From positions 5,582 through 69,581 of the forward strand of contig JAEWEG010000006.1 of assembly GCA_023389575.1 (NCBI GenBank): DNA of 64,000 nt. Reading direction: 5' to 3'. The position numbers and the translations under genes are program-made. The notes beneath the pieces were generated by a model. That model saw nothing but the letters and a program-made list of their open reading frames with translations. It searched no databases and was not told where the DNA came from. Source of the DNA: Chloroflexota bacterium. Its GTDB lineage: Bacteria > Chloroflexota > Chloroflexia > Thermomicrobiales > UBA6265. This document shows positions 31,039 through 34,547 of this stretch, piece after piece; position 1 is the stretch's first letter, and each line of letters begins with the position of its first letter.

Positions 31039-33648
31039 CTAGAGCGCGATCGTCCCCTCGTACACAAGATCCCGGCAGCGCATTTCGATCTCGGCCGGGT
31101 CGATTTCCACCCGGGCCAGACCGGTCGCCTGCGCCGTGCGCGCGACCGCCGCGGCAACCCGAGGCGCGACGCGCAGGTCGAGGCTGTCCGGAATCAGGAA
31201 CTCCGGCGTCAGCTTCTCTGGCGTGACCAGGTCGGCGATGGCGTGAGCCGCGGCGATCTTCATCTCGTCGCTGATCGTTCGGGCCCGCACATCGAGCGCG
31301 CCGCGGAAAACCCCCGGGAACGCAAGGGAGTTGTTCACCTGATTGGGGAAATCGCTCCGGCCCGTCGCGATCGCGAAGGCGCCAGCCTCCCGCGCCAGGT
31401 CGGGCGTGATCTCCGGCGTGGGGTTCGCCAGCGCGAAGATCATCGGATCGCTCGCCATCGTCCGGATCATGTCGCCAGTCAGGGTGCCAGGCGCCGACAG
31501 ACCAACGAAGACGTCCGCTCCGGGAAGCACGTCCGCCAGGCTGCCCTGCTTGCCGCCACGGTTGGTGATTTCCGCCAGTGCCTGCTTCGATCCATCGAGG
31601 CCTGGTCGACCCTTGTAGATCGCACCCTTACGGTCGCAGACGATCACGTCAGCCACGCCAACCGTGTCCAGCAACCTCGCCACGGCGACGCCGGCCGCGC
31701 CCGCGCCATTGATGACGATGCGCACGTTGCCCAGATCCTCGCCGCGCAACTTCGCGGCGTTCAGCAGGGCCGCCAGCACAATGATGGCGGTGCCGTGCTG
31801 GTCATCGTGGAACACCGGCATGTCGAGCGCTTCACGCAGCTTGTTTTCAATCTCGAAGCAACGCGGCGCCGAAATGTCCTCCAGGTTGATGCCCCCAAAT
31901 GACGGTGAAATCGCCGTGACGATACGCACGATCTCGTCCGGATCGCGCGAGGCCAGGCAGATCGGGAAGGCCTCGACGCCCGCCAGCGTCTGGAACAGCA
32001 CGGCCTTGCCTTCCATCACCGGCAGGCCCGCCTGCGGGCCGATATCGCCCAGGCCGAGCACGGCGGACCCGTCGGTCACGATCGCAACGAGATTGCCTTT
32101 GGCGGTCAGTTCCGTCACCGTCGACGGGTCGTCGCGAATGACATGCGCCGGCACAAGCGCCTTCGGCGGCACGTAAAGCGTGTTCAGGATGTGGTGGTCG
32201 CGGATGGGAATCTTGCTCCGGATTTCCAGAATGCCTCCGTGCCGCTCCCGGAGGTCGATCGCCTCTTCCCGGAGGCTGCGGTCTTCCTTTCGCACGCTCG
32301 ATCGGGCCGGGGTCAGGCGCCCCTCGTACACGTATCGCCGGGTCTTGGCCGCCACCTCATCGGCGTCGACTTCCCGCGTCGCCTCGCCGGTTTCCTGCGC
32401 TGCCCGGACAACCGCCGCCGCGATCGCCGGCGCCACCCGGAAATCGAAGATCCGGGGCAGGATGTTGTCCGCGTGCAGCTCGTTGGCGGGCACCATGTCC
32501 GCCAGCGCCCTCGCCGCGCCGAGCATCATCCGCAACCGGATATGCGTCGCGCCCGAGTCCAGCAAGCCTCGGAAGAAGCCCGGGAACACCAACGACACGT
32601 CCATCACGTTCGGGAAGTCCGAGCGTCCGGTCGCGATGACTTTCGCCCCAGCCTCGCGCGCCGCGTCCGGCTGAATCTCAGGGGTAGGCACCGCCAGCGC
32701 GAAGATGATCGGGTTGGGGGCCATCTCGCGGACCATGTCGGCCGTCACGATATCGCCGGTCGAGAGCCCGACGAACACGTCGGCGCCCTTCAGCATCTCG
32801 CCCAGGGAGCCCTTGCGCTGCTGGTGGTTGGTTTCCTTGGCGACGTACGACTTCGCCCAATTCATCCGCTCCGGCCGGTAGCGATAAATCGCCCCGGCCC
32901 GATCGCATACCACCAGATTTCGAACCCCGGCCCGCGTGAGCAGCCGGGCCACGCCGATGCCGGCGATTCCCGCCCCGCTCAGAACCACGGAGATGTCCTC
33001 GAGTCGCTTGCCCGTCACCTTCAACGCATTGTGGAGCGCGCCGAGCACCAGGATGGCTGTTCCGTGGTGCTGGTTGGAGAACACCGGGATATCCGCCGCC
33101 TTGTCGAAGTTATCGGCGATGGTGAAGGCTCGTGGCGAGGAGATGTCGTCCAGGCAGATCGCGCCAAAAGTCGGCGATATCGCCACCCCAGTGTCCACGA
33201 TCTCGCCAACGTCATGAGTCGACAGGCAGATCGGCATCGCATCGATACCCGCGAACGTCTTGAAGATGACGCTCTTCGCCTCCGCCAGCGGAATGGCCGC
33301 TTCCGCTGGACCACTCTCCCGCCCAAAAATGTCCGAACCGTCGGTAAGGATCGCCACCGTGTTGCCTCGGCAAGTCAGGTCATATGACCGGACCGTGTCG
33401 TCCTTGATGGCAAGACAGGCCTCGGCCACGCCCGGCGTATACACAAGGGAAAGCACGGACCGGTCGCGGATGGGCACCTTGGACCCAACACCAATCAGGC
33501 CCCGGTACCGCCGCCGGTAATCGAGCCCTTCATCGTCATCGGTGTAGTCCATGCCGTTGGTCGTCGTGGCCTGGGGCGCGGGTTCAGTTCCCGGGAAGCC
33601 GTCTTCGCCCTCGGGCACGGGTATGGAAAAGGTCTCGTCATCGACCAT
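31039..33648 (-). CDS. tandem-duplicated NAD(P)-dependent malic enzyme: degenerate N-terminal module fused to a canonical C-terminal module
   Basis: The 869-aa product contains two collinear malic-enzyme modules (aa ~43-444 and ~462-869). Module 2 has [52 protein letters not shown] and SDFPNQVNN. Module 1 aligns throughout but reads [40 protein letters not shown] and [12 protein letters not shown] 33648 is preceded by GGGAGG. Confidence 0.88.
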
Positions 33649-33850
33649 GCTGGACCTCCCGCGGCTGGGCTTGTCGGGGTTCGAAGAGTTCTTGATCTCA
33701 GCGTGCGCCACGTAGTGTTTCCTCCCGTACTCGGCTTCACCGGAGCGCTGGGCACGATGGTTCATCTTGCACCGGTGTGAACGACGTATGAGCAATGGTA
33801 CAACGTCCGGCTCGCCACACCTTTTGGCCCGCCTGGAACCATCACAAAAA

Positions 33851-33882
33851 GACCGCGAGCGGCGGAATCGCCACTCGCGGTC
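33851..33882 (-). terminator. intrinsic terminator (bidirectional-looking)
   Basis: 9-bp stem GACCGCGAG / CTCGCGGTC flanked by AAAAA and TTTCTT. On the minus strand it follows the lipoprotein gene stop (33914). Confidence 0.7.
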
Positions 33883-33913
33883 TTTCTTCGGAATCCTGGT
33901 TGGAACGGCCGGC

Positions 33914-34342
33914 CTAGCTGGCTGGCGTCGCGGCAATCGGAGACGCCACAGGTGAGGCTACTGGCGAAGCAATCGGCGATGCGATTACGCCAGGAACGGT
34001 GATCGGCGTGGCCGAATCAACCGCGGCCGGGCTGGCCTCGCCCATCACTGGGGTGGCCTCGCCCATCACTGGAGTGGCGGCATCCATCACGGGCGTGGCG
34101 CCCTCAACGACTGGGCTGGCGGCGGCCGGGCTAGCGGCGGTCTCCTCGGGAGTCGTCACGACTTCCTCGGTGGGCTCTTCGGTCGCTTCCTCGGTCACGG
34201 CCTCGGTTGGCGGCGCGGCCGTTGGTGTTGGATCCTCGTCGTCATCGCCTCCGCAGCTCACAAGGAGCAGCGTGCTGAGGCCAATCGCGGCGAGTGACAT
34301 GGCCTTGCGACGTTTCCCGTGAAACGCGGTAGATCGAAACAC
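33914..34342 (-). CDS. small low-complexity lipoprotein (acidic/PT-rich, ATPVMG repeats)
   Basis: GTG 34342 is preceded by GAGGAGGGG. Signal plus lipobox reads KRRKAMSLAAIGLSTLLLVSC. The mature part is D/E/T/P-rich, with ATPVM(D/G) three times and ASP(I/V) four times. Confidence 0.62.
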   Translation of the reverse strand: MFRSTAFHGKRRKAMSLAAIGLSTLLLVSCGGDDDEDPTPTAAPPTEAVTEEATEEPTEEVVTTPEETAASPAAASPVVEGATPVMDAATPVMGEATPVMGEASPAAVDSATPITVPGVIASPIASPVASPVASPIAATPAS

Positions 34343-34547
34343 GTGTTCCCCTCCTCTGTGATGACCTTGCTTCCCTTGAGTGCACGGCGCGTCATGGCGT
34401 GCCGAAGTGATGCAGTTCACAATATCGCACTCTTGTCCCTGATGCTACCCTTCGCGAAGGGACAAATCTCCCGCATCAGCCGTCAAGTATACCCGCGTCA
34501 TGCGCCCGGCGGGCGCATCGCACCGTCAGCGTCGTCCCATCACGGAA

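Follow-up and report, generated by a model that had tools for sequence, protein, structure and literature searches.

The 64,000-nucleotide stretch of DNA considered here (the window) comes from a Chloroflexota bacterium of the Thermomicrobiales (UBA6265; GenBank assembly GCA_023389575.1, contig JAEWEG010000006.1, positions 5,582 to 69,581 of the forward strand), and its minus strand carries a gene for a tandem malic enzyme in which two paralogous malic enzyme modules are joined head to tail. Residue patterns and structure modeling indicate that this protein is probably a pseudo-heterodimeric malic enzyme formed by a single chain and having one composite active site, to which the C-terminal module (M2) would contribute the pocket and the N-terminal module (M1) the catalytic tyrosine. 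An original prediction, made from the sequence alone, had read the 869-residue open reading frame (ORF) as containing two full-length malic enzyme modules, and this description holds, since both halves separately pass the Pfam cut-offs (~23 bits) for the malic (PF00390) and Malic_M (PF03949) domains. Specifically, the N-terminal half scores 50.8 bits for malic and 84.7 bits for Malic_M, and the C-terminal half scores 85.4 and 99.4 bits, respectively. When the two modules are aligned to one another they match over 407 residues with 49% identity and two gaps (E = 5e-110), in agreement with the ~422-residue offset of motifs and the similar tails that had been pointed out earlier. Each half also matches the malic enzyme portion of the NCBIfam model PRK12861.

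The modules differ in which elements of the malic enzyme active site they have kept, and the motif readings originally given for both of them proved correct on re-examination. In M2 the pocket is complete (G532LGD535, K548, E590, D591, D615, D616, G648xGxxG653, N742, N769, N772 and N773), and its own Tyr box is altered to L491-Y492-V-P-P-K-A, so that the canonical Tyr box is found in M1 only. M1 retains Y70-T-P-G, the catalytic lysine (K125), D167-D168 and G225xGxxG230, and in it H-D-D is replaced by S191-N192-Q193, the Asn in the ANP motif by V320, N-N by D350-V351 and GLGD by GRES. Thus, M2 contains every pocket residue of the set expected in a competent enzyme, and M1 alone does not. The proposed degeneration of the M1 catalytic motifs is upheld both by alignment to the 6zn4 structure and by the comparative counts given below, as residues needed for catalysis are absent; the list of losses requires refinement, as the catalytic lysine is in fact kept within the AEAK motif, and the change from NLED to LDD is a conservative Glu-to-Asp substitution. 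Alignment offsets to chain 6zn4_A place Y70, K125, D167 and N192 of M1 on Y52, K107, E149 and D174 of BbMaeB, respectively. The adjacent Q193 occupies a position that we take to be that of a metal ligand, equivalent to Asp279 in human ME2. Both modules have a C-D-R motif following Rossmann strand β2.

The division of these residues between the modules can be read in light of how small prokaryotic malic enzymes are built. Their catalytic site is formed by both protomers, with Y52 donated by the other monomer (PMC7902834). The same paper places K107, E149 and D174 in the pocket, where D174 coordinates K107, and notes an origin in the other chain for Y52 only. Because the tyrosine acts in trans in that enzyme, the intact elements of the tandem protein would fall together in one composite site and the degenerate elements in the other. 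Were the tyrosine to act in cis, neither module would be left with a complete site. The diverged YTPGVA box in M2, which the original prediction had mentioned as a side remark, is the key to the pattern.

We propose that the protein is a single-chain 'hetero-pseudodimer', in which two paralogous protomers have been fused head to tail and have undergone complementary degeneration. Small malic enzymes, the background class, are obligate homodimers with tightly interlocked protomers, in which each composite site combines the Lys, Glu/Asp and Asn residues of one protomer with a tyrosine on the N-terminal arm of its partner. In the tandem enzyme, M2 would supply the complete pocket, and M1 would supply the tyrosine arm (Y70) together with the dimer-forming N-terminal domain. 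In M1 the Asp that positions the lysine is lost (now N192), as are a metal-ligand Asp (now Q193), the Asn contacts to substrate and nicotinamide (now V320 and D350/V351) and the loop GLGD. Exactly one working site would result, composed of the M2 pocket and the M1 arm, whereas the reciprocal combination of the M1 pocket and the altered M2 arm would be dead. The predicted reaction is malate's conversion to pyruvate by oxidative decarboxylation, using NAD(P)+ and a divalent metal.

The complementary pattern is reproduced in two sets of relatives. A scan of one genome per species for M1-specific motifs revealed at least 192 species genomes that carry M1, and residues were counted in the 72 intact loci among the best 80 of 192 genomes (Thermomicrobiales set); in addition, a distant-relative profile recovered 119 further two-module proteins of 806-892 aa from other phyla. 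In the Thermomicrobiales set, the Y, T and G of the M1 Tyr box are present in 72/72 sequences, and the tyrosine is never replaced. The SNQ, DD and Lys residues of M1 are each found in 71/72, V, I or L replaces the ANP asparagine in 72/72, and D[VIST] replaces NN in 72/72. Every pocket residue of M2 is present in all 72, and its tyrosine is changed to His or Cys in four of them. In the other phyla, the M1 Tyr box is equally constant (Y in 119/119, T in 119/119, G in 118/119), whereas the M2 Tyr box has drifted toward Y[LSV]PP: its tyrosine is retained in 113 proteins and replaced by Ser in six, the Thr has become L, S or V, and the Gly has become Pro in 105. The reverse holds for the pocket. 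The first Asp of HDD is present in 119/119 M2 modules and in none of the 119 M1 modules (where N, T, A, S, H or V is found), the ANP asparagine in 119/119 versus 7/119, and the last Asn of NN in 119/119 versus 0/119; the remaining pocket columns are likewise present in 119/119 M2 modules and variable in M1. Column-wise conservation (1 minus normalised entropy), computed in two independent sets, gives the same picture. M1 scores higher than M2 in the Tyr box (by 0.076 and 0.234), whereas M2 scores higher in the GLGD-MEGK, NLED, HDD, ANP and NQVNN segments (M1 minus M2 differences of -0.01 to -0.27 over both sets).

Structure prediction is consistent with the modules packing together within one chain. 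AlphaFold2, run on the window protein with a 58-sequence family alignment, returned a full-chain model with a mean predicted local distance difference test score (pLDDT) of 86.4 and a predicted template modelling score (pTM) of 0.86, in which confidence is low only for residues 1-31 and the last three residues. The model for P0417, a protein of another lineage in the second set, is more confident still (pLDDT 93.4, pTM 0.92, linker pLDDT 80-88). The two modules are thus predicted to form one rigid body, with confident relative placement at chain lengths of 840-869 residues, and the intramolecular packing suggested in the original prediction is supported at the level of these models. A Foldseek search of the PDB with the whole model found 5cee as a near-complete match to a single protomer (template modelling score 0.97 over the target, TMt, and 0.44 over the query, TMq; root mean square deviation 1.3 Å). 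Its alignments extend over at most 461 columns, or ~400 for prokaryotic matches, and no solved chain spanning both modules was found in the PDB by Foldseek, which returned single chains only, with TMq values of at most 0.45. From the models and the residue pattern, we infer that the modules adopt the canonical dimer packing, with Y70 placed in the M2 pocket in trans and a single active site.

A related arrangement would pair M1 of one chain with M2 of a second chain in a head-to-tail dimer or higher oligomer, again with one active site per pair. The complementary residue pattern demands M1:M2 pairing and not pairing within the same chain, and malic enzymes are often tetramers or hexamers, both of which are compatible with inter-chain contacts. 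Nevertheless, we consider this arrangement unlikely, as the single-chain models (pTM 0.86 and 0.92), together with the ordered linker in P0417, depict a confident intramolecular arrangement, and as the linker has a fixed length of 16 aa in 109/121 homologues, as would be expected of a defined intramolecular connection.

Purifying selection acts on M1 no less strongly than on M2. In the family of the query, M1 has a mean pairwise identity of 0.79 and M2 of 0.77, and of 406 columns in each module, 180 in M1 versus 173 in M2 are at least 98% invariant. The ratio of nonsynonymous to synonymous substitution rates (dN/dS), calculated for genome pairs by the Nei-Gojobori method, is 0.03-0.065 for M1 and 0.02-0.09 for M2 in close pairs (dS 0.2-0.46, dN <0.04), with medians over 2010 pairs of 0.17 and 0.21, respectively. 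These values bear out the view that M1 is a conserved module and not a decaying one. Judged from its sequence, M1 would fit the definition of a pseudoenzyme, namely an enzyme homologue that lacks residues required for catalysis and is maintained by purifying selection.

Strong conservation of M1 could also be explained if the chain were bifunctional, with M1 performing a changed chemistry or acting on a changed substrate, for example in a metal-independent reaction or on another 2-hydroxy acid. M1 is as conserved as M2, it keeps Lys125, D167/D168 and the GxGxxG motif, and its replacement residues (SNQHH, RMNWAK) are themselves nearly invariant, all of which would suit such a role. We nonetheless regard a bifunctional chain as rather improbable. 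The lysine-positioning residue has been lost in all of the fusions examined (0/119 and 0/72), along with the Asn residues that contact the substrate and nicotinamide, and the replacements vary by lineage (at one position N, T, A, S, H or V), a pattern that speaks against a new catalytic solution shared by the family. Moreover, in related families the recognisable Rossmann region of M1 is gone, and the arm that would serve the M1 pocket, the M2 Tyr box, is the degenerate one. A precedent from plants points in the same direction: the β1 subunit of the C4 NAD-dependent malic enzyme (NAD-ME) of Cleome is inactive, which has been attributed to Y132S and to D297V, the latter removing the Asp that holds the catalytic lysine, and the inactive subunit still stabilises and regulates the α subunit (bioRxiv 10.1101/2021.06.16.448762). 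Loss of the equivalent Asp and of the catalytic Tyr thus goes with inactivity in that system. By analogy, the loss of the lysine-holding Asp in M1 would be expected to accompany inactivity, and a dead malic enzyme partner may be regulatory.

What the dead site of M1 might do is a more speculative matter. The remaining elements (K125, D167/D168, GxGxxG and the RMNWAK loop) might bind a nucleotide or dicarboxylate that acts as an allosteric signal; alternatively, M1 could simply stabilise the active half. M1 of the Thermomicrobiales keeps the GxGxxG motif and the Asp after β2, and the loop that follows this strand (R258...R261-M-N-W-A-K266) has a conservation of 0.90 as compared to 0.72 for its M2 counterpart. 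As judged from sequence, these features are compatible with the binding of a nucleotide-like ligand, and the loop could serve as a ligand or interface site specific to this lineage; that the dead pocket has an allosteric use is a guess. The RMNWAK loop is nearly invariant in Thermomicrobiales and is not conserved in P0121, a member of the second set.

The fusion is widespread. When 5.8 billion proteins were searched, over 120 clusters (defined at 90% identity) were retrieved, with lengths of 837-913 aa, query coverage of 95-100% and identities of 72-100%; those that carry a name come from Thermomicrobiales or Chloroflexia metagenome-assembled genomes (MAGs). The best 80 of the 192 M1-bearing genomes are Thermomicrobiales, Sphaerobacteraceae, Chloroflexia or Chloroflexota MAGs, except for three that bear the label 'bacterium' alone, and the nearest among them is an uncultured Sphaerobacteraceae bacterium with 97% identity. 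The names in the 119-protein set include candidate division NC10, Nitrospinae, Nitrospirae, Cyanobacteria HKST-UBA05 and Vampirovibrionales. The question of how far the fusion extends, which the original prediction had left to database searches, is thus answered by 192 species genomes and 119 proteins of other phyla; the architecture is a multi-phylum class and not a local oddity. Both modules lie in one uninterrupted frame in 72 of the 80 loci, with six others cut by contig ends, so the in-frame fusion that was originally read from a single contig is real. An origin in collapsed or misjoined paralogues, or in a decaying pseudogene, is refuted by the comparison of genomes and barely credible: although two of the 80 loci are disrupted (a frameshift in L029 and an in-frame stop in L068), the same fusion recurs in 72/80 independently assembled genomes, an identical protein is present on four contigs from different samples, hundreds of protein clusters from several phyla share the architecture, dN/dS is far below 1 in both modules and the length of the linker is conserved. 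The frameshift in L029 falls inside M2, and the stop in L068 is accompanied by extra length near the junction of the modules; in both cases sequencing error and a real pseudogene are indistinguishable.

The relationships among the modules were examined with a neighbour-joining tree of 83 modules (Kimura distances, 200 bootstraps; the P0140 family described below was not among them), using flexible bootstrap tests in place of exact-set tests; the long branches P0122, P0128 and P0132 are unstable. All M1 sequences, from all phyla, form one clade with 82% bootstrap support, M2 sequences other than the aberrant P0122 form another with 64% support, and the two subtrees mirror each other. The pseudo-modules also share the sequence 'RGLIGV' where ordinary enzymes read 'GGKIEV'. 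Because of the M1 clade, the M2 clade and their mirrored subtrees, the data favour one ancient fusion, followed by co-divergence or whole-gene transfer, with later reduction of M1 in some lineages. The reduced forms P0135, P0138, P0149 and P0154 group elsewhere in the tree. P0151 (407 aa), which falls in the M1 clade, was considered as an unfused version of the module and was rejected, as it ends in mid-helix without the YVYEGRL tail and is a contig-end fragment. A 125-aa profile of the N-terminal arm of the pseudo-modules was also run against the 5.8 billion proteins, and its matches were confined to short pieces of ordinary malic enzymes.

An exhaustive search of representatives at 50% identity uncovered many proteins of 610-812 aa in which the N-terminal module is reduced (Table 1). 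The reduced module is recognisable at model positions ~3-150, which correspond to the arm and the N-terminal domain; in most of the proteins scanned it is no longer detected by Pfam, and it keeps the sequence 'GLIGV.SK.PVRD...LSLVYTPGV'. No Rossmann region of M1 is any longer recognisable in these relatives. The catalytic module has lost its own Tyr in most of them, and in many this position is taken by L, F, V, I or H. Because this region is unrecognisable in the reduced relatives, the universal function of M1 would be to provide an arm and an interface, not to bind ligand; its indispensable part, to judge from these sequences, would be the N-terminal arm and domain and not the Rossmann fold. 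In P0140 (848 aa; one cluster member is found on 35 contigs) the order of the modules is reversed and the same split is seen: the first module has a full pocket with 'LVLASAAAG' in place of the Tyr box, and the second keeps 'LALAYTPGVG' and has lost the Lys, Glu-Asp, Asp-Asp and Asn residues. This reversed fusion may be an independent event that arrived at the same complementation. P0122 (860 aa; six cluster members) has lost both Tyr positions, which are S and A, and in its M2 GLGD has become GRGG and the ANP asparagine an alanine. It does not fit a model with one active site and may have a new function.

Several observations weigh against the single-chain model with a trans-acting tyrosine, or limit how far it can be taken. 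The premise that the tyrosine acts in trans is carried over by analogy from the structural statements of one paper (PMC7902834). In addition, the M2 tyrosine (Y492) is still present in 68 of the 72 Thermomicrobiales genomes, and it may have a role in cis or some other role in this family. M1 with its lysine, acidic pair and GxGxxG motif could conceivably retain residual or altered chemistry. In the tree, M1 and M2 are joined as sisters relative to ordinary enzymes with bootstrap support of only ~43%. Finally, the sequence does not decide between NAD and NADP as the preferred cofactor, or between malate and oxaloacetate or malolactic chemistry.

The coordinates of the gene and its parts are collected in Table 1. 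The maximal minus-strand ORF spans 31039..33936 (965 aa), and the 869-aa reading starts at the ATG at 33648. A protein identical to it in the database (P0001), encoded on four contigs from other samples, is called there at 908 aa from an ATG corresponding to 33765, upstream of which no ribosome-binding site is found in the sequence. The 869-aa start is preferred over both the 908-aa call and the 965-aa maximum because it is preceded by a GGGAGG site, because the maximal ORF contains a terminator hairpin and because conservation among 121 homologues begins only at about residue 38; on this sequence evidence it appears better supported than either alternative. The hairpin was revealed by direct folding, having been overlooked by a simple consensus terminator scan. 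With this terminator upstream, the malic enzyme gene appears from the sequence to be its own, monocistronic transcription unit. Its downstream neighbour encodes a 155-aa protein with no Pfam match, and the surrounding genes are unrelated to it (inositol monophosphatase-like, glucosamine-6-P isomerase-like, an EamA transporter, NDH-2 and superoxide dismutase). Operon context was considered and set aside, as the neighbours are unrelated housekeeping genes that differ at one locus of another lineage. No second malic enzyme gene is present in the 64-kb window. The upstream ORF (33914-34420, minus strand; 168 aa at most, 128 aa as called elsewhere) has no Pfam match on record; it is of low complexity and rich in Ala, Pro, Thr and Glu, with a hydrophobic N-terminus ending in Cys and repeated 'ATPVMGE' and 'SPIASPVASP' sequences, and it resembles a lipoprotein.

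Table 1. Coordinates of the tandem malic enzyme gene, its parts and flanking signals in the window, and relatives with a reduced N-terminal module.
Feature	Position	Strand	Details
Whole gene, tandem malic enzyme	31039..33648	-	869 aa; stop codon 31039-31041; ORF listing, Pfam and NCBIfam matches in both halves
N-terminal tail, aa 1-39	33532..33648	-	Variable, probably disordered; mean pairwise identity 0.19 (121 homologues); pLDDT <50 for residues 1-31
M1, aa 40-445, putative pseudo-malic-enzyme module	32314..33531	-	Pfam, self-alignment, residue patterns, dN/dS
M1 Tyr box, aa 69-78, proposed trans-acting catalytic arm	33415..33444	-	Y maps to BbMaeB Y52
RMNWAK loop of M1, aa 258-266	32851..32877	-	
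Inter-module linker, aa 446-461	32266..32313	-	16 aa in 109/121 homologues; identity 0.49; pLDDT 68-83 for residues 441-480
M2, aa 462-869, predicted catalytic malic enzyme module	31042..32265	-	E = 2e-125 to 5cee; full pocket
Shine-Dalgarno sequence GGGAGG	33655..33660	-	6-nt spacer to ATG 33648; identified by inspection of the sequence
Intrinsic terminator of the upstream gene	33846..33887	-	Perfect 19-bp hairpin and U run, -35.9 kcal/mol, z = -9.4 versus shuffles
Reduced-M1 'malic enzymes' (P0124, P0125, P0128-P0131, P0134, P0135, P0138, P0149, P0154, P0156, P0161, P0169, P0174, P0205)	610-812 aa		Shrunken pseudo-module is the N-terminal ~260-400 aa

The tandem enzyme can be compared with four known systems. 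Each of its modules has the fold and length of the small prokaryotic malic enzymes (~380-440 aa homodimers; 5cee, 2a9f, 1vl6, 1ww8), M2 shares all of their catalytic residues, and the composite site with a trans tyrosine is drawn from that class; however, those enzymes consist of two identical chains with two equivalent sites, whereas here diverged modules in one chain hold one full set of residues. The hybrid MaeB types (E. coli MaeB, Bdellovibrio MaeB, Sinorhizobium DME/TME) are of similar size (80-90 kDa) and likewise combine a catalytic malic enzyme module with a dead enzyme-derived domain, which in their case is C-terminal and PTA-like; it is from this family that databases take the name 'NADP-dependent malic enzyme' for the fusion. 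In the tandem protein, by contrast, the presumed dead domain is a malic enzyme module, is N-terminal and is predicted to substitute for a dimer partner instead of serving as a hexameric acetyl-CoA sensor. No PTA domain is matched in Pfam or NCBIfam; the PRK12861 match is confined to model positions 8-413 of 764 and scores 659 bits against a cut-off of 1178. The malolactic model NF041582 (139 versus 850 bits) and the large eukaryote-type model PRK13529 (229 versus 326 bits) also remain below their cut-offs, and no NCBIfam model reaches its cut-off for this protein. Plant NAD-ME α/β1 similarly pairs an active subunit with an inactive paralogue that has lost the lysine-holding Asp, with one active site per heterodimer. 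It differs in being encoded by separate genes, in belonging to the large eukaryote-type enzymes whose tyrosine lies within its own chain and in having an independent origin; moreover, plant β1 has lost its tyrosine, whereas the inactive module of the tandem enzyme must keep it. In NAD-isocitrate dehydrogenases (yeast IDH1/IDH2, human IDH3 α/β/γ), a catalytic subunit is combined with a paralogous non-catalytic subunit whose vestigial site binds allosteric ligands. These too are β-decarboxylating enzymes with composite sites and provide a model for the speculative regulation through M1, although the likeness is one of logic only, as they belong to another family and their subunits are unfused.

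The original prediction had not recognised the architecture as described, and our searches of the full-text literature, NCBIfam and the PDB likewise turned up no paper, curated family or solved structure that corresponds to it. A review of malic enzymes distinguishes two groups of prokaryotic enzymes and the PTA-fused form of 80-90 kDa (PMC8100219), and a 2025 paper on MaeB deals with hybrid-type enzymes (PMC12704298); term searches of these two sources returned no malic-malic tandem. Nothing on two malic enzyme domains in one chain was found in the full-text literature, the coverage of which leaves out most subscription journals. In the source databases the proteins are named 'NADP-dependent malic enzyme' or 'malic enzyme-like NAD(P)-binding protein'. 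The known kind to which the protein belongs is a malic enzyme with a pseudoenzyme partner, and the tandem form adds to this kind without constituting a new type of system. We give even chances to the broader account, in which an undescribed class of Chloroflexota, Methylomirabilota/NC10, Nitrospirota, Nitrospinota and Melainabacteria arose when a homodimer became, through one ancient fusion, a single-chain heterodimer with one composite site, the pseudo-module was then reduced toward a Tyr-donating domain and its pocket was perhaps put to allosteric use.

There is a gap in annotation, since the full-length proteins are labelled plainly as 'NADP-dependent malic enzyme', and the reduced forms appear as single-domain enzymes with an unexplained N-terminal extension of ~300 aa. 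Malic enzymes occupy the node of central metabolism at which pyruvate and malate meet, and they are targets of engineering. In a single-chain asymmetric scaffold the half-sites could be mutated independently, which is hard to do in a homodimer. If the proposed arrangement is correct, the family would illustrate cleanly how an obligate homodimer can be duplicated and its copies degenerate in complementary ways, and it would include a conserved pseudoenzyme module with a vestigial site that could have a regulatory role. It would also lend independent support to the composite, trans-Tyr site of prokaryotic malic enzymes, and would constitute a natural 'experiment' in trans-acting catalysis in malic enzymes as well as a scaffold for engineering asymmetric enzymes.

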